64,000 bases of DNA from the UHGV virus genome UHGV-0167633; one strand, 5' to 3'. Source of the DNA: a virus. Position numbers and translations under genes: made by a program. Shown here piece after piece: positions 13,878 through 38,938 of the stretch; the stretch's first letter is position 1, and the number at the start of each line of letters is the position of its first letter. The notes under the pieces were generated by a model. It was not told where the DNA came from. It ran no database searches and was given only the letters and a program-made list of their open reading frames with translations.

Positions 13878-14044
13878 GTATTTTTAAGTCGCGAATGCTA
13901 TCTTTTCGCATCATATTGACCTTTTAATCGTTCAGGCTTATAGTTCCGCCGTCGTAGCAAATTCTGCGACCGGGTTTAGCAGCCTGAATGATTGTGCGGA
14001 CAGCCGCAGATATCCGATATTGCGGTATTTTTGTGTCCGTAAAA

Positions 14045-14175
14045 CCGCGTTACGCCCAAATTATGGTGGGGCGTGATGGGGAGGCTTCGGCCTGCTGGTT
14101 TCACAATCGCCAGTCTGCTAACCCCGTCACGTCCTGCCACCTGTTTAGCAGCGGGTAGCAGGTTGTTAAACCTGA
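14045..14175 (+). ncRNA. candidate c4-like antisense regulatory RNA
   Basis: ORF-free, densely hairpinned segment between operator and icd (CGCCC/GGGCG, GGCTTCGGCC tetraloop, CTGCTAA/TTAGCAG, CAGGTT/AACCTG adjacent to icd RBS); position as in P1 c4. Confidence 0.3.
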
Positions 14176-19035: not shown

Positions 19036-19217
19036 TACACCCGCTGCGGTGTGCTTGGGGCTATCAGCTTCAGGTATTACCCGAAAAGCAGATAGAAGAA
19101 AGCCCCAGTAAACATTATGCGTCCCGCACAACGCTTAACATTAACCGGGGCCATACCTATGCTTAGCGTACTTAGATTAATCCTCTCCTCTGTCAAGGAG
19201 CAAGGAATTTTTTACTG

Positions 19218-19850
19218 CTATGCCGCCTTTCCAGTTATGGATTCTGCGACAAGAACAACCCCATGCTTACTTCGATCCGGATGTTCACTCCATATCTCGG
19301 ATTCAGGAATACTTTCCCCGTCATAGCAAACACGTTCGCCGTCAAACGGGTAATACTGAGCGGCATCGGTGTCGAGGATAAACACTTTTAGCTCGGATGA
19401 GCGACGGGCGATGTGTTGCCAAAGAGCTTTTCCACCTTCGTATTGCTCATTATCACTGAGCAAAACAACACCAGCTTTTGAGGCTACGGTTTCGTAAACA
19501 AAAGTGGCTAAACCGACATCCCGGACGATTCCATCAACCACGATACCTTCAATCTGGGCAACATCGCTATCCTCCCAGAACTTCCTTACCAGTACGCCTT
19601 CAAGCTGCGGGCGACGTTGAAGTTCAAGAGTAGCGACAACCTTATGCCGCATATCACCATCGATAACAGAAGGCGCAGCCTCTATTACAGCTGCAAATGG
19701 GGTTTTGGAATCCCATATAACCTGGTAAAGCACACCCTGGATGGTAACGCCGTCCAGGATCGAAAATCGACGAGCGACAGTACCCGGGGAGTACGACATT
19801 GGAATCACAGCCATTTTAGAGTCCCCCTTTAACAGTACAGGCACAAACAT
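19218..19850 (-). CDS. hypothetical protein (own promoter region and upstream terminator)
   Basis: 210-aa ORF (likely start at MAVIPMSY); preceded by AT-rich region and bidirectional hairpin. Confidence 0.4.
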   Translation of the reverse strand: MFVPVLLKGDSKMAVIPMSYSPGTVARRFSILDGVTIQGVLYQVIWDSKTPFAAVIEAAPSVIDGDMRHKVVATLELQRRPQLEGVLVRKFWEDSDVAQIEGIVVDGIVRDVGLATFVYETVASKAGVVLLSDNEQYEGGKALWQHIARRSSELKVFILDTDAAQYYPFDGERVCYDGESIPESEIWSEHPDRSKHGVVLVAESITGKAA

Positions 19851-33700: not shown

Positions 33701-35961
33701 AAGAGCTGTGCTATGGATCTGTTTGCAGTGGAATTGAAGCCGCGAGTGTTGCCTGGGAACCGTTGGGTATGCGTCCGGCGTGGTTTGCTGAAATCGAGCC
33801 TTTTCCATCTGCCGTTCTTGCGCACCGCTGGCCCCATGTCGCCAACCTTGGCGATATGACAAAACTTGCCAAAAAAGTCCTGGCTGGGGAAATCGAATCC
33901 CCTGATGTGCTCGTCGGGGGAACACCTTGTCAGGCATTCAGTATCGCTGGATTACGTGGTGGGCTTGATGATGAGCGTGGCGCGCTAACTTTAAAGTATG
34001 TGGAGCTTGCAAATGCAATTGACGACAAACGGGCTGAGTCATTTCTCAAACCGACAGTTATCGTCTGGGAAAATGTCCCAGGAGTCCTGTCATCGGCAGA
34101 TAACGCCTTCGGATGTTTCCTTGCCGGATTGGCTGGAGAAGATGCGCCATTTGAACCAGGTGATCGACCTGAATCAGGAAAAAGTAACGCGTTCTGGCGG
34201 TGGGATGGCAAAACCGGTTGCCATGCTCCAAAGTGGCCGCAGTGTGGTTGTATTTATGGACCGCAGCGAAAGGTGGCCTGGAGAATCCTTGATGCCCAAT
34301 ACTTCGGAGTGGCACAACGACGCCGACGCGTGTTTGTTGTCGCAAGTGCTCGAACAGACCTCGATCCCGCAACGGTACTTTTTGAGTTCGAAGGCGTGCG
34401 CCGGAATATTGCGCCGAGCCGAAAAAAGAAGGAAATCGCTTCCGCCATTATTGCAAATGGCGCTGCAATCAGTGGCGAAAGCCTAAATCCATGCCTACAC
34501 GCTGACATGCCACCCGGTATGAAATCGACGAAAGCCGTAAACGCTTTCAGGATGGCAGCATTTGGGGAATATATTGACGATGAAACCGCATCGACAGTAA
34601 AGGCAAGAGATTTTAAAGATGCCACTGACCTTGCCGTTTTTAGCAGCACAGGAGCAGGTTTTTGGTCAGAAGGGCATGGTACATTGCGGGCACGTGAGCA
34701 AGAAAGCCATGAGCATCTTGTTACATTGGCTTTTCCTGAGCGTATGAGCGGTACACAACATGCTGCAACTAAGAATACTTCACCATCTCTAATGGCTAAA
34801 AATCCAACAGCTGTTTGCTATGAAGTAAGAAACGCAGAAGTAGCTGTCCGCCGTCTTACCCCTATCGAATGTGAAAGGCTGCAAGGTTTTCCTGATGGGC
34901 ATACGTTGATCCCGACGGAAAAGCGTAAAAAAGTTAATTCAGATGAACTGGCATATCTTCGCAATCACTATCCAGATTTAAGCGAAGAAGAGGCCGCGAT
35001 GTTTGCAGCTGACGGACCGCGTTACAAAGCGATCGGCAATAGTATGGCGATACCAGTAATGCGCTGGATTGGCGAGCGGATTACCAAGGCTGCATGTCGG
35101 CAGAATGAAGGGCGTGAAACAAAAGAGCGAAAAGTTAAACCTGCGGCAGAATTCGAACGGTCCATATTCAAATGGGCTGGTGGAAAATTTGGTGTTCTGG
35201 AACAAATCTTTCGCTATTTGCCAGAAGGGAAGCGCCTAATTGAACCTTTTGTCGGTGGCGGATCTGTCTTCACGAATGCCGGATACCAGGAAAATCTGCT
35301 AAATGATGTGAATGCTGACCTGATTAACTTTTACAAGACTCTGCAACGCGAGGCGCATTCACTTATCACTCTGGCACATCGTTTCTTCCAGGACTACAAC
35401 ACACAGGAAGGATACCTGGCAGTACGGAATGCGTTTAACAAACAAGTCTATGATGATTTACATCGCGCAGCGGCGTTTTTGTTCCTGAACCGACATTGTT
35501 TTAACGGATTGACGCGTTACAACCAGGCCGGTGAGTTCAATGTCGGTTATGGGAAGTATAAAACTCCGTATTTCCCATTACAGGAGATGGAAGCCTTCCT
35601 CGGTGCGGAAGGGCGGTCTGAGTTTGTATGCGGTGATTTTGCAGCGGTGATTGAAGCTGCCGGAGAAGGAGATGTCATCTTTTGCGATCCGCCGTATGAA
35701 CCGCTTCCAAATACAGAGGGATTCACGAACTATTCCGGTCATGACTTTAAGTTTGAAGAGCAAAAACGCCTGGTGTCTCTGTTGACGGATGCTCATCGTC
35801 GAGGTGCAAAGGTTCTCATTACTAACAGTGGCGCGCCAAACATCAGAGAGCTTTATCATGACAGTGGCTTCAGAGTGGAACCTCTTTTTGCCAGACGTTC
35901 TGTGTCTTGTAAGGGGGACACTCGAGGTGTAGCTCATGACGTTCTGGGCATATTGCTCTAA
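33697..35961 (+). CDS. dmt: bifunctional DNA methyltransferase (N-terminal C5-cytosine MTase fused to C-terminal Dam-type N6-adenine MTase)
   Basis: 754-aa ORF; C5-MTase motif [12 protein letters not shown] near N-terminus, ENV motif, and DPPY (CDPPYEPL) in C-terminal half. Confidence 0.85.
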
Positions 35962-35968
35962 TAAATTT
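35952..35968 (+). promoter_or_regulatory. C1-repressor-type operator (perfect 17-mer)
   Basis: ATTGCTCTAATAAATTT overlapping the dmt stop codon, upstream of the tRNA/tciA/ban region; embedded in 16-bp palindrome CTAATAAATTTATTAG. Confidence 0.6.
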
Positions 35969-36143
35969 ATTAGTGTAATATCGCCTCAATGAATCGTGAT
36001 TTATAGAGCGATTTAGCTGTTAGCCGCGACAGGCGCGGCGGCAAGTATGGCGGGGTAGTGACTCCTTCCCCATCATGACGCCGAGTTGCCAGGTTGACCA
36101 TACGCCTAAGTGGTAACACCGAAGTGCGTTACGAGCTTCCAGT

Positions 36144-36171
36144 TTGCCCATCTTCGGGTGGGCGTTTTTTT
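36144..36171 (+). terminator. rho-independent terminator
   Basis: GCCCATC-TTCG-GGTGGGC followed by GTTTTTTTT. Confidence 0.55.
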
Positions 36172-36637
36172 TCAGGGTTTTCGTCATGGTTAGCGACTTT
36201 GCGGCGGTTTAGAAACTGACCATTAAAGTAAATGCAAACGATGATCTGATGATGGTAGCGGCCTAAGAAGCCAGACGCCACGGGGTATGAGTCGTCCCCC
36301 GTCAAAAAATCGACCGCAGAGTGTCCCCGTCTGTGTATTAGGGAACGGGGAGGCTTAACAGGCAAGGGCGCTGGTGTGATTAACCAGATGAACGAGAAGG
36401 GGCTATCTGTTGGTCAGCGTCCTTACCTGTTACGTCCTTTTTCATTCAGCGTAACAGCCATTGCTTAATGGCATCCTGGGAGAATTTCTTGTAACGGGTA
36501 TATCCCGTCATGCTGAAGGCGCTAATCACGCTGGAAGCCAGGGTTGTGCATCCCCTGTTACCGAATTGCAGCCAGGGCGCGGTGCGCCGAAAAGCATACG
36601 GAGGTGGAAGCCCTCGCCGGAGACGTACCCGGCAAGT

Positions 36638-36713
36638 GATGGTGTAGCTCAGCGGTTAGAGCGGTTGACTGTTAATCAACGGGTCGATGGTTCAAATCCA
36701 TCCACCATCGCCA
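36638..36713 (+). tRNA. tRNA-Asn (anticodon GTT)
   Basis: 76 nt; 7-bp acceptor GATGGTG/CACCATC, D-arm TAGCTCAGCGGTTAGAGC, anticodon loop CTGTTAA, T-arm GATGGTTCAAATCCATC, encoded CCA. Confidence 0.85.
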
Positions 36714-36715
36714 AT

Positions 36716-36791
36716 GCCGGTTTAGCTCAGTTGGTAGAGCGCCTGCCTTGTAAGCAGGATGTCAGCGGTTCGAGTCCGTTAATCGGCACCA
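36716..36791 (+). tRNA. tRNA-Thr (anticodon TGT)
   Basis: 76 nt; acceptor GCCGGTT/AATCGGC, anticodon loop CTTGTAA, T-loop GGTTCGAGTCC, encoded CCA. Confidence 0.85.
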
Positions 36792-36792
36792 G

Positions 36793-36879
36793 CACAACAG
36801 GTAAGGGTATTTTGCGACGTCGGAGATCGCCGAGCTTGGCAGAGGGTTCGAATCCCTACGAAGTACCCTTACCGTTGTG
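36793..36879 (+). repeat. long-hairpin element, copy 1 (16-bp stem enclosing T-loop-like GGTTCGAATCC)
   Basis: CACAACAGGTAAGGGTA ... TACCCTTACCGTTGTG, immediately after tRNA-Thr CCA end. Confidence 0.5.
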
Positions 36880-37017
36880 AGGAAGCGCAGCTCTTTGAAG
36901 CAACCAGAAGATAAGCATCTGGCTTCACAACATAAACCGCAGGAACGACCAATAAACGGTAGTCCGTATGGAGAACACCCCGTTGAGGAAGAGGCCTGGC
37001 CGGAACCGTAACCGGCA

Positions 37018-37113
37018 CTACAACGTTGAGAACACTGGCGTAACGGGGTCATATCCCAATCTACGAATAAATGTTGCGTTGCCGCGTGACAACCAGTGTT
37101 CTCAACATTGTGG
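37018..37113 (+). repeat. long-hairpin element, copy 2
   Basis: CTACAACGTTGAGAACACTGG ... CCAGTGTTCTCAACATTGTGG (19/21 bp paired), followed by TGAATGC. Confidence 0.5.
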
Positions 37114-37294
37114 TGAATGCACAGGCTGATGTGCCGCAACTACAGTAGTGCGCGCTTTGCGGGGCTTGCTACAACCCTGTGTCGGAATTCAGCACCGACC
37201 ATCACAGTTTGATTCTCTGGCATGAGCATAACGCTGAAATAAGTCCAGTCTGGTGCGGTCTGATCACCCGCCGTTAGCTCCACGATACGGAGCG

Positions 37295-37382
37295 CACAAC
37301 AGGTAAGAGTATTTGTAGAGTTCGACTCTCTACCGTGGGCTTTTTCCCGCGATGCGAGCCATAAATGCTCTTTCCGTTGTGG
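37295..37382 (+). repeat. long-hairpin element, copy 3 (contains T-arm-like GTAGAG-TTCGACT-CTCTAC)
   Basis: CACAACAGGTAAGAGTA ... TGCTCTTTCCGTTGTGG, followed by TGAATGC. Confidence 0.5.
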
Positions 37383-37534
37383 TGAATGCGCGTTGCTAGC
37401 GCGCAAGTCCGCCCTATGGCAACGAGGCGGCGTAGTAAATATCGATGCCTCAGTCATCAAGCGCACTGACCGGCCTTATGGGCTATGAAAAAAAGAGGCG
37501 CAGTCGGAGATCAGCACCGACCACCACAATCACT

Positions 37535-37621
37535 GGAGAGTAGGGAGCATGGTGCTCAAGCGGTCTTGAAAGCCGTCCCGTTGCGCAAGCGATGATGGTT
37601 CGATTCCATTACTCTCCGCCA
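37535..37621 (+). tRNA. tRNA-Ser(TGA)-like sequence (possibly a pseudo-tRNA)
   Basis: Perfect 7-bp acceptor GGAGAGT/ACTCTCC + G + CCA; T-arm GATGG-TTCGATT-CCATT; anticodon arm GCGGT-CTTGAAA-GCCGT (anticodon TGA); long variable region; D-arm non-canonical. Confidence 0.35.
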
Positions 37622-37622
37622 T

Positions 37623-37735
37623 CGCAACGTTAAGAGTATTTGGCTAATTAAGCGAATGCCGGAAGCAGAACCGGATCACCAAATGCGTACAGGCGTCATC
37701 GCCGCTCAGTCAGCCAAATGCTCTTACCATTGCGG
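37623..37735 (+). repeat. long-hairpin element, copy 4
   Basis: CGCAACGTTAAGAGTAT ... ATGCTCTTACCATTGCGG, immediately after the tRNA-Ser-like CCA end, followed by TGAATGC. Confidence 0.45.
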
Positions 37736-37884
37736 TGAATGCGGCTAAGCGCACGCGGGGAAATGGTTATATCAGTCCATTCATTTCTCCTTGTTTCCCC
37801 GTCCACGGTGGATAACCAGCCAAAGGACACCGGGAGGCACCCGGCACCGCAACCTTATTTCCCAACCAGTAATGAGGTTAATAA

Positions 37885-38310
37885 ATGCTCGGCATTCTCA
37901 AAAAGAAATTCCGCAAAGCGGCTGGCGGAGTCAAGAAGATGGAAAACCGTGATGCGGTGGAAGCGACCGTCTGGGGCGCATATTCCATTGCATACTCTGA
38001 CGGCACCTGCGATGCGAAAGAAATTGCAGTATTGGAAAAAACCATTGCAGCACTTCCTGCCTTTGCGCCCTTCTCCGGTGAAATTGCCCAGATGAGCGCC
38101 AATATTCGCGCTCAATATGAAGCCTCGCCGCGCCGAGCTAATGCCCAGGCTTTACGTGAGCTGGCTGATGTGTCCGGGACTAATGATGCGGTAGATGTTC
38201 TGTGCCTATGCATTGATATTGCTGACCAGGATGGCATTGGGGCTGAAGAGCAGGAGCAATTGAAGAAAATTGCCCAAGCTCTTCAATTGCCACTGGAACA
38301 GTATGTCTGA
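37885..38310 (+). CDS. tciA: TerB-like protein
   Basis: 141-aa ORF with TerB-type helical pattern; position as P1 tciA after the tRNA cluster. Confidence 0.55.
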   Translation: MLGILKKKFRKAAGGVKKMENRDAVEATVWGAYSIAYSDGTCDAKEIAVLEKTIAALPAFAPFSGEIAQMSANIRAQYEASPRRANAQALRELADVSGTNDAVDVLCLCIDIADQDGIGAEEQEQLKKIAQALQLPLEQYV

Positions 38311-38474
38311 TGGTTATAAAAGCACGTTTAATTCTAGCTTTGGTCTTTCTCGTGCTATCTGTGCTGGTGGATTTCACCAGCACAATCCTGTCAGTTTTAT
38401 CGGACGGGGCGTTGGTGGCAGTAGCTGTAACATTGGTATGGCCGATATTTAAAACAGCTTCGAAGGATCAGTGA
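38310..38474 (+). CDS. small membrane protein (54 aa)
   Basis: ATG overlaps tciA stop (TGATG); MVIKARLILALVFLVLSVLVDFTSTILSVLSDGALVAVAVTLVWPIFKTASKDQ. Track lists a different frame here. Confidence 0.35.
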   Translation: MVIKARLILALVFLVLSVLVDFTSTILSVLSDGALVAVAVTLVWPIFKTASKDQ

Positions 38475-38581
38475 TGGGCTTCTGGGATTTTGCTGACAAG
38501 CATCCAATTGTTCTCGTTGTCATTGCTGGCATAGTTGTAGGCGGTATTGCTGGCGTCATAGAAGCACTCAGGAAACAGTAA
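38474..38581 (+). CDS. small membrane protein (35 aa)
   Basis: ATG overlaps previous stop; MGFWDFADKHPIVLVVIAGIVVGGIAGVIEALRKQ; ends 3 nt before tRNA. Confidence 0.3.
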   Translation: MGFWDFADKHPIVLVVIAGIVVGGIAGVIEALRKQ

Positions 38582-38584
38582 TCC

Positions 38585-38660
38585 GGCCCTTTAGCTCAGT
38601 GGTTAGAGCTGGCGACTCATAATCGCACGGTCACCGGTTCAAGTCCGGTAGGGGCCACCA
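38585..38660 (+). tRNA. tRNA with CAT anticodon (Ile-lysidine or Met type)
   Basis: 76 nt; acceptor GGCCCTT/AGGGGCC, anticodon loop CTCATAA, T-loop GGTTCAAGTCC, encoded CCA. Confidence 0.8.
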
Positions 38661-38938
38661 TATTTGGTTGTAACACGGCGTCTGGCACATGCGTCGTTAG
38701 CGGTCTGGTGACGTTAAAGGGGTAACCTTTCCCCTAGCTCAGGCAACAAACCAGGTAGCCGGAATGTGCAAGTCACCGTTGGTAGGATAGCGGATTCAGG
38801 GACTCACCATCCTGGCGATTCGGTGTGACAGCCGGGAAGAGTCCGGCGCATTAATCCTGATTTTCTGGTGATGACTCATATCGTTAGGAGTGATTTGAGT
38901 ATGCCGATTATATCTGACATTCAGCACGCCTGGGTGGA

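Follow-up and report, generated by a model that had tools for sequence, protein, structure and literature searches.

The RtT RNA of the Escherichia coli tyrT operon is an example of tRNA "punctuation," in which repeats located 3' of tRNA genes are co-transcribed with them and freed by tRNA-processing enzymes; the RtT repeats contain a 3' fragment of tRNA-Tyr and are host-encoded. In the TMERs of murine gammaherpesvirus 68, tRNA-like units are followed by pre-miRNA hairpins, and tRNA-processing enzymes free the hairpins. The P1 C4 RNA precursor is processed by RNase P, and DicF is processed by RNase III and RNase E. In the 64,000-nt stretch of UHGV virus genome UHGV-0167633 analyzed here (the window), we identified an array that, like RtT, consists of repeated structured units downstream of tRNA genes; however, it alternates two unrelated designs (long hairpins, H, and modules of types A and B) and is spread over many phage families, and the Rfam RtT model has no match in the window. 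As in the TMERs, viral tRNAs or tRNA-like units are directly followed by long hairpins, whereas TMERs belong to a eukaryotic host system with Pol III transcription and microRNA output, and there is no sequence relationship between the two. To our knowledge, no bacterial pathway uses released hairpins of this kind.

The type B module of the array is of the prophage sRNA type STnc100/PasD, the only one among the array's module types that bears a name. STnc100/PasD RNAs of lambdoid prophages lie near TerB genes, as here, and related PasD sRNAs were detected by Hfq RIL-seq (bioRxiv 10.64898/2026.05.13.724894). In EDL933, 11 STnc100 copies are transcribed, one of which was confirmed by northern blot (PMC5331693). 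Type B is an expressed kind of RNA, as the STnc100 data from EDL933 (PMC5331693) and the PasD data (bioRxiv 10.64898/2026.05.13.724894) show. The B module shares with STnc100/PasD a closing helix (UGGUG...CACCA), a 5' hairpin and a CCGGG-AGGCA-CCCGG 3' hairpin; however, the copy in the window scores below threshold, lacks its own terminator and is fused to the tciA 5' UTR. The preceding H hairpin, the type A sister module and the link to tRNAs are not described in the STnc100 Rfam model or the STnc100/PasD papers cited here. Literature searches on phage tmRNA-like RNAs, tRNA-like sRNAs of prophages and the P1 transcriptome turned up no description of H, the A modules or the tag-like frame discussed below.

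In this P1-like phage-plasmid, the region forms the central part of the ban-operon leader, which is under C1 control and extends untranslated over ~1.9 kb from Pban to tciA (37885-38310, + strand). P1 is heavily used in genetics, and ~2 kb of its ban operon is unannotated or bears two probably spurious genes. Upstream of the array, the C1 operator/Pban promoter region (35952..35968, + strand) contains ATTGCTCTAATAAATTT, and the homologous site in P1 is annotated as operator Oban with promoters P1ban/P2ban; a simple consensus scan found no promoter in 35800-39100. A terminator scan identified an intrinsic terminator (36142..36175, + strand; an 8-bp GC stem followed by T8) that ends a DicF-like leader segment, annotated in P1 as "dicF-like region." The C1 operator, Pban, the tRNAs and the genes are all on the + strand, on which the modular array also reads. 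Its grammar can be written as (H - X)n, with long hairpins H alternating with units X that are either true tRNAs (Asn, Thr and Ser) or tRNA-shaped modules (type A or type B). Each H is a long imperfect hairpin with a CAAC...GUUG stem and a variable interior; its 5' arm begins 0-3 nt past the preceding 3' end, and its 3' arm stops where the next unit starts. The chain holds at least nine units, the STnc100-like B module being one of them. The original prediction had placed the array at 36793-37860; elements do lie within these limits, but the array starts further upstream, with a fifth hairpin (H0) and additional modules located 5' of the tRNAs. This building plan is common to hundreds of enterobacterial phages, both temperate and virulent.

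Hairpins H1-H4 have stems of 17-26 bp, minimum free energies of -37 to -55 kcal/mol and z-scores of -3.8 to -5.4 against dinucleotide shuffles, none of which (0/200) was as stable as the native sequence. H1 (36793..36879, + strand; -42.6 kcal/mol, z = -4.4) has the stem CACAAC-A-GGUAAGGGUA / UACCCUUACC-GUUGUG, enclosing one D-arm-like and one T-arm-like hairpin; this interior shares homology with the first hairpin of a stand-alone RNA in locus L254. H2 (37016..37115, + strand; -49.1 kcal/mol, z = -5.4) has a 23-bp stem with compensatory variants in relatives, such as GAGACCACUGG/CCAGUGGUCUC. H3 (37295..37384, + strand; -37.3 kcal/mol, z = -3.8) contains a T-arm-like hairpin and recurs in the lambdoid contig L252. 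The 26-bp stem of H4 (37620..37737, + strand; -54.8 kcal/mol, z = -5.3) includes two internal mismatches and two U·G pairs. The additional hairpin H0 (36356..36434, + strand; UAACAGGCAAGGGCGCUG...CAGCGUCCUUACCUGUUA), read from the sequence, has as its interior a hairpin (S3) with the conserved loop UGUGAUUAA, and this loop is kept on covarying stems in HK620, Bas78, L254, L267, L335 and Mordin. A repeat finder also recovered a common 3' arm family and inverted repeats. The four hairpins H1-H4, together with the atypical tRNA-Ser(UGA) described below, are real and non-random.

Several features that had been proposed for these hairpins were confirmed. H1 begins 2 nt past the CCA of tRNA-Thr and H4 overlaps the CCA of tRNA-Ser, as expected from the claim that two elements start right at a tRNA 3' end, and the T-loop-like motifs noted in the interiors are present in H1 (AGGG-UUCGAAU-CCCU) and H3 (GUAGAG-UUCGACU-CUCUAC). 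A TGAATGC tail after every hairpin had also been proposed, and this held for three of the four, H1 being followed by AGGAAGC instead. The TTGYGGTGAATGC tail occurs in three exact copies within 622 nt on the + strand, against an expectation of 0.35 in 64 kb (allowing ≤1 mismatch), and it corresponds to the start of the second, tRNA-shaped module. More broadly, the view of the region as a non-coding array of related structured elements tied to tRNAs was borne out: conservation was to be checked in homologous phage-plasmids, and the elements recur with covariation there and in many further phages. In a pair table built from 38 sequence-distinct H stems, most positions show compensatory changes, and a U·G pair is conserved in 19 of the 38. 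G·U pairs occupy 54 cells of this table and A·C mismatches 25, so that the strand test is not clean, as those 25 cells would be G·U pairs on the opposite strand; nonetheless, U·G pairs across the helices favor the + strand as the RNA. H1 and H3 also resemble YrlA (RF02553) in that a long terminal stem encloses T-arm-like and D-arm-like hairpins. However, Rfam YrlA did not match any hairpin at E ≤ 10, its sole match spanning two true tRNAs, and we rejected a Y-RNA identity; no Rsr/Ro60 gene was seen in the flanks examined or in the annotated P1 context.

ARAGORN identified tRNA-Asn(GUU) at 36638..36713 (Rfam tRNA, 74.5 bits) and tRNA-Thr(UGU) at 36716..36791 (72.9 bits), both on the + strand. 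At 37535..37621 (+ strand), where a near-complete type-II tRNA with anticodon TGA had been predicted, ARAGORN called tRNA-Ser(tga). The sequence can be read as a cloverleaf with a 7-bp acceptor, the T arm GAUGG-UUCGAUU-CCAUU with its UUCRANY T loop, the anticodon loop CUUGAAA with U33 and a purine at 37, G73 and a 3' CCA; its oddities are a D arm with a 4-bp stem and 5-nt loop, A8 and G73, and a 9/4 Sec-like fold is possible. The tRNA scans agreed only in part with the prediction: in addition to the ARAGORN call, RF00005 had no match to 37535-37621 at the gathering threshold, and the tRNA-Sec model scored 43.4 bits against a gathering score of 47, the E-value scan listing the best clan match alone, which for this sequence is the tRNA-Sec model. 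Across eight homologues from P1-like, SSU5-like and rV5-like phages, we observed compensatory changes in the acceptor (5:83 and 6:82), the D stem (12:23) and the variable arm. Phages D6 and rV5 have this tRNA-Ser annotated with the same atypical caveat. These comparisons support a conserved, structurally constrained type-II tRNA.

The original prediction overlooked the second half of the repeat, namely the tRNA-shaped modules A and B, the latter matching Rfam STnc100. Modules are opened by UGUGGUG-AAU and closed by CACCACA, and the resulting 7-bp closing helix (UGUGGUG:CACCACA) abuts a 5-bp 3' hairpin, which is the acceptor-plus-T-stem geometry of a tRNA. Every module further carries a 5' hairpin, with a loop complementary to that of the 3' hairpin. 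Type A modules are absent from Rfam. The degenerate A-type module A1 (36874..37024, + strand), read from the sequence, keeps the 3' hairpin GCCGG-AACCGUAA-CCGGC followed by ACUACAAC, and a portion of the module shares 92% identity with SSU5-like plasmids of Klebsiella. A2 (37108..37206, + strand) consists of UUGUGGUG-AAU, a 5' hairpin (hp1) GCACA-GGCUGA-UGUGC, a variable middle, a 3' hairpin (hp2) GUCGG-AAUUCAGCA-CCGAC and CAUCACA. A3 (37377..37528, + strand) ends in GUCGG-AGAUCAGCA-CCGAC-CACCACA, 6 nt 5' of tRNA-Ser. Based on an alignment of 23 A modules from related loci and A3 of the window (A2 was not included), four of the five pairs of hp1 show compensatory changes, with 99% paired, and the closing helix and hp2 likewise vary on both sides; the kissing complement between the two loops is 92% paired and is backed by conservation, without covariation.

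The B module (37730..37852, + strand) is closed by UGCGGUG:CACCGCA, a both-strand variant of UGUGGUG:CACCACA. It aligned to positions 31-147 of the 206 in the STnc100 model (RF02076) at 37.8 bits, below the gathering score of 47, with the terminator part missing; a B homologue in locus L088 covers positions 1-206 at 47.7 bits and passes the gathering score. The conserved closing helix, the 5' hairpin and the CACCGGGAGGCACCCGGCACC 3' element of STnc100 are all present in the window's copy. Downstream, the tciA Shine-Dalgarno sequence is paired in a small hairpin read from the sequence (AACCUUAUU / AAUGAGGUU; 37851..37887, + strand), which is followed by the tciA start at 37885. The conserved loops GGCUGA, AGAUCAGCA and UGUGAUUAAUAA hint at a specific partner, and a pure "punctuation" model leaves them unexplained.

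The A and B modules are not detectably homologous to tRNA: no module had an Rfam tRNA match even at E ≤ 10 or an ARAGORN call, and most lack an encoded CCA. O157 typing phage 9 carries a genuine tRNA-Arg at precisely the A slot, flanked by the H 3' arm and the AAUCACGCCUAAGGACCGUGAU hairpin, and in loci L024, L054 and L057 the same register reads CACCACA-A-CCA-AAUCACG. Given the T-arm-like hairpin interiors, the acceptor-plus-T-stem geometry of A and B, and the real tRNA in the A slot, it is plausible that the array elements are tRNA-derived.

Our leading reading, a tentative one, is that the region gives rise to a polycistronic array of non-coding RNAs that is cut by tRNA-processing enzymes; the hairpins would act as protected spacers and recombination joints. 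The whole leader would be transcribed as a single C1-repressed non-coding precursor; because a strong terminator sits between Pban and the array, this needs either read-through or an unmapped internal promoter. Host tRNA-processing machinery would then cut the precursor, with RNase P acting on the 5' side of every tRNA or tRNA-like unit, RNase E and 3' exonucleases acting at the 3' sides, and RNase III possibly cleaving the long stems as well. The geometry fits RNase III and RNase P sites, given stems of 17-26 bp and an A/B minihelix of 7 + 5 bp (acceptor plus T stem). This would yield mature tRNAs, small RNAs of the STnc100 and A types, closed hairpin RNAs resistant to exonucleases, and a tciA-ban mRNA whose 5' end is defined. 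Such an array predicts processing sites and places an abundant class of prophage sRNAs from EHEC, EPEC and Salmonella in a structural and evolutionary context.

Module boundaries between the window and its relatives P1, D6, Ro157c2YLVW and CMS-2020a fall inside hairpin arms. For example, the window and P1 differ by an interior of 403 nt vs 42 nt. Identical arms can enclose unrelated interiors, and an identical interior can lie between unrelated arms, as in H4, whose interior is homologous to a segment 3' of tRNA-Ser in rV5-like phages with entirely different arms. Because relatives differ by whole cassettes joined at the arms, the conserved arms may double as DNA homology for swapping tRNA or module cassettes among phages, which shows a route of phage tRNA cassette exchange. 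A genome-contig search with GTTGYGGTGAATGCG returned mostly chance matches across unrelated phyla plus one Kosakonia contig and was taxonomically uninformative; a Salmonella-type H-B unit, compared with E. coli genomes by megablast, matched only over a 44-nt flank, and no E. coli K-12 copy was located in this way.

We weighed these observations against other accounts of the region. Contrary to the claim that the region is free of ORFs, two ORFs occur on the minus strand (36762-37139, 125 aa; 37140-37466, 108 aa), which are annotated in P1 and relatives as plp, a putative lipoprotein, and upl. If these encode proteins, the hairpins would be incidental; however, we regard this as highly improbable, as variable sites are spread evenly over codon positions (20:19:25 in plp and 12:12:15 in upl), indels of 1, 7 and 10 nt as well as in-frame stops appear in relatives of 83-89% identity, and plp overlaps tRNA-Thr in antisense. 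The plp/upl region is also missing or rearranged in CMS-2020a-type relatives, and both genes were non-essential in a CRISPRi screen (PMC10695390). Based on the codon-position and frameshift evidence, we rejected protein-coding plp/upl, and both gene annotations are probably spurious. The cassette-like differences with junctions in the arms, including the exchanged interiors and arms described above, are also what would be expected if the hairpins were primarily DNA elements, whether recombination sites made of inverted repeats or miniature mobile elements (attC-, MITE-, REP- or PeSL-like), that move tRNA cassettes without an RNA function of their own. The CAAC...GUUG ends recall the R''/R' boxes of attC, and the stem has a conserved imperfection. 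This account is nevertheless very unlikely, because array orientation tracks transcription (same strand as the nearest downstream ORF in 56 cases, opposite in 7), the conserved U·G pair and the excess of + strand G·U pairs would be mismatches in a cruciform of the other strand, and the adjoining A/B modules show RNA-type covariation. Moreover, the flanking genes examined include no integron-type integrase or transposase, and the cores, (G/A)CACAAC and GUUGUGG with variants such as CAAU/AUUG and UAAC/GUUA, depart from the attC consensus RYYYAAC/GTTRRRY.

The modules might instead be cis-acting leader RNAs that shield transcription as processive antiterminator or anti-Rho elements, comparable to HK022 put or boxA/nut, and a 1.9-kb untranslated RNA is an expected target for Rho. 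Like lambda nut and HK022 put, the family includes promoter-proximal structured RNAs in lambdoid leaders upstream of terminators: the copies in L010 and L088 lie downstream of a PL-like operator-controlled promoter, after cI, the HK620 copy lies between pR'/qut and tQ, and a further one is in the P1 ban leader. In addition, the H 3' arms are boxA-like (UGCUCUUU, UGCUCUUAC), with a conserved-loop hairpin 13-15 nt later in a nut-like layout. Even so, this function is quite unlikely. The virulent phages Bas78 and L308 carry this RNA as a stand-alone gene that ends in a terminator of its own, which led us to downgrade a cis-antiterminator as the main model. In Bas78 the annotated neighboring genes are on the opposite strand, and in Mordin the tag core lies among tRNA genes, so that the family also occurs in virulent-phage tRNA arrays. 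The boxA-like sequence is base-paired within a long helix, the window's modules lie 3' of the sole strong terminator rather than before it, and there is no sequence similarity to HK022 put, the motifs of the array being absent from the HK022 early regions; we rejected put homology accordingly.

Between the terminator and H0, we identified an element (36176..36320, + strand) comprising a 5' hairpin and a tag-like reading frame whose stop codon is immediately followed by an H-type pseudoknot. The frame (36234-36266) reads GCA AAC GAT GAT CTG ATG ATG GTA GCG GCC TAA, or ANDDLMMVAA*; it has no start codon, is preceded by UAA at -6 to -4 and ends with a hydrophobic residue followed by Ala-Ala. The tag core occurs in at least 572 phage records and is annotated in none of them; its carriers are phages of Enterobacterales, including lambdoids, the P22-like HK620, P1-like and SSU5-like phage-plasmids, Kuttervirus, FelixO1-like and N4-like phages, Webervirus and Dhillonvirus. 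Across the phages examined, the frame is invariably 10 codons plus a stop. The 26 nucleotide variants encode ANDDLMMVAA, ANDDVVLMAA, ANEEMYLAVA, ANDEQFLAVA, ANDNQYLAVA and others, and Cba120 encodes the same starting residues with different codons (GCU AAU). When the 26 distinct tag sequences are joined in a minimum spanning tree, changes by codon position are 20:9:26, depleted at second positions, whereas changes in the flanks are roughly even; single changes in the tag are 13 synonymous vs 19 non-synonymous. Together, these counts provide moderate evidence of selection on the tag peptide. In the pseudoknot after the stop, seven of nine pairs show compensatory changes and 99% of cells are paired. 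Only a hairpin is seen 5' of the tag, and the one pseudoknot identified beside it is on the 3' side. Bas78 and L308 carry the tag RNA as a stand-alone gene that has a promoter of its own in addition to the terminator.

These features resemble those of tmRNA (SsrA), two-piece/permuted and mycobacteriophage forms included; the points of likeness are the start-less ANDxxxxxAA* frame, the upstream stop triplet, the following pseudoknot (PK2 in tmRNA), AGCUCCAC and co-location with phage tRNAs. In a 2014 census of RefSeq phages, ssrA was found in mycobacteriophages alone, and tmRNAs of Bacillus phage G and mycobacteriophage DS6A were added (PMC4131195). The array and tag element could together form an unconventional phage tmRNA-like RNA for ribosome rescue or for interference with rescue, an account that overlaps with enzymatic processing of the array and does not exclude it, although we regard it as rather unlikely. 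In this account, trans-translation would decode the 10-codon ANDxxxxxAA frame, the H hairpins would serve as architectural helices, and tRNA function or SmpB binding would come from an A module, from the interior of H1 with its T-arm-like and D-arm-like hairpins, or from a neighboring tRNA. The invariant frame length, the recoded tag start in Cba120, the depletion of second-position changes, the covarying pseudoknot, the stand-alone genes, the number of records and the location in phage tRNA clusters all argue for such a function, as does an 8-9 nt match to E. coli ssrA that is colinear with the tag (spacing of 258 nt in the phage RNAs and 263 nt in ssrA), which places AGCUCCAC at a tmRNA-like distance. 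Against it, the phage element lacks a recognizable tRNA-like domain, a G3:U70 acceptor and an encoded terminal CCA, and no conserved acceptor of this type was found among nine representative tag RNAs; a 5' hairpin ending in CCA (UAGUUUU/GAAACUG-A-CCA) is implausible as an acceptor because it sits immediately 5' of the tag, and the remaining hits of that search were noise. The phage tags also end in LAVA, MVAA or LMAA, whereas tmRNA tags end in ALAA. Rfam tmRNA models score 11-27 bits against a gathering score of 47, arising from the tag alone (tmRNA_permuted on the window's element, 26.1 bits). ARAGORN called no tmRNA in the window or in ~65 related loci, except for a permuted tmRNA in Mordin (tag ANDNVFLAVA); this call counts in favor but is doubtful, since the three tRNA genes that it spans make a chance composite probable. 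Cleavage by RNase P at the H/A junction would also part the tag from the A module, and the 13 vs 19 changes leave the case for peptide selection at moderate.

It is possible, although doubtful, that the P1 ban leader and its counterparts in at least 572 phages encode a previously unrecognized tmRNA-like RNA with a tag template, a pseudoknot and non-canonical tRNA-like modules, which may be the region's A module and its T/D-arm hairpins. If so, the hairpins and A modules would be structural components of such a machine, and phages would either run their own rescue and tagging with altered tags (...LAVA, ...MVAA) or jam the host system. If the tag is decoded, phages of Gram-negative bacteria would have their first tmRNA-like system, and trans-translation a new architecture, with a bearing on phage-host conflicts over translation such as tRNA-cleaving defenses and ribosome stalling. 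Within the array that we propose to be processed, the resemblance to the tmRNA 3' end lies at 37252..37293 (+ strand), where a hairpin is followed by a second one, GCUCC-ACGAUAC-GGAGC, and the 5' strand of this second hairpin resembles AGCUCCAC. The GCUCC hairpin element also precedes the last H hairpin in loci L250, L252, L254 and L308, with the compensatory variant GCCAC...GUGGC.

We rated the region at 36793-37860 as an array of phage structured RNAs linked to tRNAs, with STnc100-type modules among its members. The array is real, is only partly covered by known families (tRNA, STnc100), and is wider in coordinates and phylogenetic spread than was first described. Based on megablast, the window belongs to the P1-like phage-plasmids and aligned along its full length to a plasmid of Escherichia albertii with 99.2% identity; phage P1 itself holds just 69% of the stretch. 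In P1, the ban operon is ordered as C1 operator and Pban, DicF-like segment, trnA (Asn), trnT (Thr), the region 36793-37860, tciA/B/C, trnI, and ban, all on the plus strand. Located between Pban and the tRNAs, the DicF-like segment (window 36073-36175, plus strand) finishes with a strong intrinsic terminator (36142-36175). For the tRNAs, tciABC, and ban to be transcribed, the polymerase must therefore read through it or start at an unmapped promoter.

The P1 annotation assigns two minus-strand genes to this region: plp (window 36762-37139; 125 aa), which overlaps trnT in antisense, and upl (37140-37466; 108 aa). Variable sites among 18 distinct homologues fall evenly on the three codon positions (20:19:25), relatives at 83-89% identity carry indels of 1, 7, and 10 nt and in-frame stops within these ORFs, and both genes were non-essential in a CRISPRi screen (PMC10695390). 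The original prediction that no protein-like ORF exists here is therefore correct in substance, even though the minus-strand frames are present. Judging from these alignments, plp and upl are probably spurious genes; passed on through many annotations, they overlap structured RNAs and tRNA-Thr and have no coding signature.

The four long hairpins (H1, 36793-36879; H2, 37016-37115; H3, 37295-37384; H4, 37620-37737) are real, with folding z scores of -3.8 to -5.4 relative to shuffled sequence and 0 of 200 shuffles equally good; the spacers between them fold no better than shuffles (z about 0 to +1). Their shared 3' arm and tail, TTGYGGTGAATGC, occurs in three exact copies within 622 nt, and the chance expectation with ≤1 mismatch is 0.35 per 64 kb. 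Two elements had been described as starting right after a tRNA CCA end: H1 starts 2 nt past the tRNA-Thr CCA, and H4 overlaps the tRNA-Ser CCA. In a table of 38 sequence-distinct H stems, the majority of positions have compensatory changes, and an imperfect zone is fixed 5-8 bp from the base. Of these stems, 19 contain a U·G pair, and the totals of 54 G·U cells vs 25 A·C cells favor pairing in plus-strand RNA, albeit not cleanly. A further H-like hairpin (ACAAAACAGAGAAGAACA...UGUUCUUCUCUGUUUUGU), a variant with AAAC/GUUU as its closing pairs, immediately follows the leader terminator and precedes the first early-left gene in locus L010 (5240-5370) and ~35 other lambdoid loci.

The TGAATGC tail, previously assigned to the hairpins, is the beginning of a second module, which we recognized by reading 3' of each hairpin in ~120 viral contigs sharing the 3' arm motif. 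The module opens with (U)UGUGGUG-AAU, closes with CACCACA(A), and has two types. Type A consists of a 5' hairpin (GCGCA-GGCUGA-UGCGC), then 40-100 nt of variable middle sequence, and a 3' hairpin (GCCGG-AGAUCAGCA-CCGGC) directly abutting the closing strand. Type B (5' GCG-GCUCAG-CGC; 3' CCGGG-AGGCA-CCCGG) is the Rfam family STnc100, with a score of 37.8 bits in the window; in locus L088 it exceeds the gathering score, at 47.7 bits. Once the variable middle was removed from 23 distinct A modules, pairing in the 5' hairpin stood at 99%, four of its five pairs being compensatory, and the 3' hairpin and closing helix also had both-sided changes; complementarity between the two loops (GCUGA:UCAGC) holds for 92% of cells, without covariation. 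The idea of related repeated elements is borne out by their covarying copies in related phage-plasmids and numerous other phages (38 H stems, 23 A modules). Based on these comparisons, the window is a chain of two alternating unit types, in the order tag element, H0, A0 (a remnant), tRNA-Asn, tRNA-Thr, H1, A1 (degenerate), H2, A2, small hairpins, H3, A3, tRNA-Ser, H4, B, and tciA.

The A and B modules resemble tRNA in that their 7-bp closing helix and the directly adjoining 5-bp stem of the 3' hairpin form a stack of 7 + 5 bp, as in the acceptor and T stems, with the 5' hairpin in the place of the D arm. O157 typing phage 9 has a true tRNA-Arg(UCU) precisely bracketed by the H 3' arm (…GCGUU|GUGGCAU…) and the hairpin GAAUCACGCCUAAGGACCGUGAU; in other lambdoid contigs, identical flanks surround an A module ending in CACCACA-A-CCA-AAUCACG. 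In the window, A3 ends 6 nt 5' of tRNA-Ser, and H hairpins begin at tRNA 3' ends. Neither Rfam nor ARAGORN recognized the A and B modules as tRNA, so the resemblance is architectural and positional, and homology is not demonstrable.

ARAGORN called 37535-37621 as tRNA-Ser(UGA), in agreement with the predicted type-II fold with anticodon TGA, and compensatory changes preserve its acceptor stem, D stem, and variable arm in eight homologues, which come from P1-like, SSU5-like, and rV5-like phages. Rfam scanning agreed only in part: the sequence fell below the threshold of the general tRNA model, with no listed match, and reached 43.4 bits with the tRNA-Sec model (gathering score, 47). Its D arm combines a 4-bp stem with a 5-nt loop, positions 8 and 73 are A8 and G73, and we interpret it from this comparison as a constrained yet atypical type-II tRNA. 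This tRNA-Ser(UGA) is common to P1-like, SSU5-like, and rV5-like phages; the copies in the window (plus strand), L004 (3001-3091), and L005 (3071-3157) score 43-44 bits with the tRNA-Sec model, and its sequence also permits a 9-bp acceptor combined with a 4-bp T stem, which would be a Sec-like or "allo-tRNA"-like fold.

Phage P1 corresponds to window 36500-37313, 42 nt, and window 37717-38000, so its single hairpin combines the 5' arm of H3 with the 3' arm of H4; the 403 extra nt between these arms in the window comprise the interiors of H3 and H4 together with A3 and tRNA-Ser. In D6, 37132-37504 is missing, Ro157c2YLVW carries an additional tRNA-Tyr and a 160-nt insertion at the H2 base, and in CMS-2020a, tRNA-Thr leads directly into H2. 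The rV5-like phages keep the H4 interior after tRNA-Ser, flanked by wholly different arms. The hairpin arms, as aligned here, are the joints of mosaicism.

Units also occur in other contexts. In contigs of Gifsy-like prophages, a PL-like promoter with an operator lies 3' of cI and is followed by an H-A or H-B unit and then by an intrinsic terminator; in HK620, the unit is flanked by pR'/qut and the late terminator tQ; genes downstream of units are heterogeneous and accessory. EDL933 has 11 transcribed STnc100 copies, one verified by northern blot (PMC5331693), and one STnc100 copy lies 75 nt 3' of stx2 (PMC12370729). PasD, a relative, was found by Hfq RIL-seq, and the related PasA/PasC loci typically have TerB genes as neighbors (bioRxiv 10.64898/2026.05.13.724894), which fits the junction of B with tciA (TerB) in the window.

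In a relaxed Rfam scan, the leader sequence at 35900-36650 gave a weak permuted-tmRNA match (26.1 bits) from one stretch only, …UAAAU GCA AAC GAU GAU CUG AUG AUG GUA GCG GCC UAA. This stretch holds a start-less frame of 10 codons, ANDDLMMVAA* (36234-36266, within the tag element at 36176-36320, plus strand), whereas the Escherichia coli SsrA tag is ANDENYALAA; an in-frame UAG lies eight codons upstream and a UAA at -6 to -4. The equivalent place in an SSU5-like Klebsiella plasmid encodes ANDNQYLAVA*, and the HK620 late leader encodes ANEEMYLAVA*. A pattern scan of viral contigs, together with the other loci analyzed, yielded 26 distinct nucleotide versions, each of 10 codons plus stop (including ANDDVVLMAA, ANDEQFLAVA, ANDDLMLMAA, and ANEERFLMAA); Cba120 reaches ANDNTFLAVA via different Ala and Asn codons. 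On a minimum spanning tree, tag changes by codon position are 20:9:26, with both flanks roughly even, and single changes are 13 synonymous and 19 non-synonymous.

Directly 3' of the tag stop is an H-type pseudoknot that is 99% paired with seven of nine pairs compensatory, and sliding the partners destroys the pairing. Farther 3' are a hairpin in which the stem covaries and the loop, UGUGAUUAAUAA, is invariant, then H hairpins and an A module. Most stand-alone versions examined, but not HK620, also have a hairpin GCUCC-ACGAAAC-GGAGC, the 5' strand of which matches the tmRNA 3' end (CAGCUCCAC); the spacing from tag to CAGCUCCAC is 258 nt in the phage RNA vs 263 nt in ssrA. Counterparts of these 3' parts lie at 37252-37531, inside the region 36793-37860; in the window, tRNAs and extra H/A units have been inserted between the tag and its 3' parts. 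Using blastn, we identified the leader-tag-pseudoknot core in at least 572 phage records, spanning lambdoids, P22-like, P1-like, Kuttervirus, FelixO1-like, N4-like, Webervirus, Dhillonvirus, Erwinia, Serratia, and Cronobacter phages; in all of the matches listed, it is unannotated or overlaid by hypothetical proteins.

On these features, the tag element may be a tmRNA-like RNA. A canonical tRNA-like domain (G3:U70 acceptor with CCA) was sought in the tag RNAs and not found, and the ARAGORN tmRNA search was negative on ~65 related loci. If the tag is decoded, candidate tRNA-like partners are the A module, the T/D-arm hairpins, and a neighboring tRNA; without any such partner, the element could be a decoy. 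No description of it was found in the papers that we searched. In a 2014 census, mycobacteriophages were the only RefSeq phages with ssrA; the census also contributed the tmRNA sequences of Bacillus phage G and mycobacteriophage DS6A (PMC4131195). ARAGORN made a permuted-tmRNA call in Citrobacter phage Mordin (tag ANDNVFLAVA) that spans three tRNA genes and that we regard as a chance composite. The call used a circularly permuted tRNA-like element inside the tRNA array (L355, 375-450), ordered as T arm, acceptor 3' strand ACCCUUC-G-CCA, AACA, acceptor 5' strand GAAGGGU, and D-arm-like sequence. Escherichia phage EC1-UPM (L356, about 1330-1395 and 1480-1520) has short tRNA-like minihelices 3' of the tag element, with acceptor UCCGGUG/CGCCGGA-A-CCA and a T arm but no anticodon arm, on which ARAGORN was silent. 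In Escherichia phage SandraMuster_Bas78 (L250, 1100-1780), the stand-alone tag/hairpin/A-module gene is antisense to three "hypothetical protein" CDSs (Bas78_0055-0057), which are therefore doubtful.

What has been shown (the structures, the strand that they are on, where they lie with respect to tRNA ends, the junctions between cassettes, and expression of B-type relatives) is consistent with a polycistronic non-coding precursor dissected by tRNA-processing enzymes at each tRNA or tRNA-like unit, a reading to which we give slightly under an even chance. The H hairpins would then act as closed spacers that resist nucleases, or would cap the upstream product at its 3' end, and their conserved arms would double as homology for cassette exchange; we infer every cleavage step, as well as read-through of the DicF-like terminator. 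Leader positions and boxA-like 3' arms would also suit modules acting as cis-antiterminators, but two observations weaken this role: in the virulent phages Bas78 and L308, the same RNA forms a separate gene equipped with a sigma-70 promoter and a terminator, and in Mordin, the tag core lies between tRNA genes. That the H hairpins are purely DNA-level elements is likewise weakened, by the conserved U·G pair and by an orientation bias, elements having the orientation of the nearest downstream ORF in 56 cases vs 7.

Directly 3' of the STnc100-like module, a 9-bp hairpin (window 37851-37887, plus strand; AACCUUAUU / AAUGAGGUU) sequesters the tciA Shine-Dalgarno, which suggests that translation of this TerB-like gene is under structure-dependent control. 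Elsewhere in the window, above-threshold Rfam matches at 13938-14144 and 19049-19222 (both plus strand) are the C4 antisense RNA with its a1/b1 targets and the sok antitoxin, the expected P1 immunity (immI) and plasmid-addiction RNAs.
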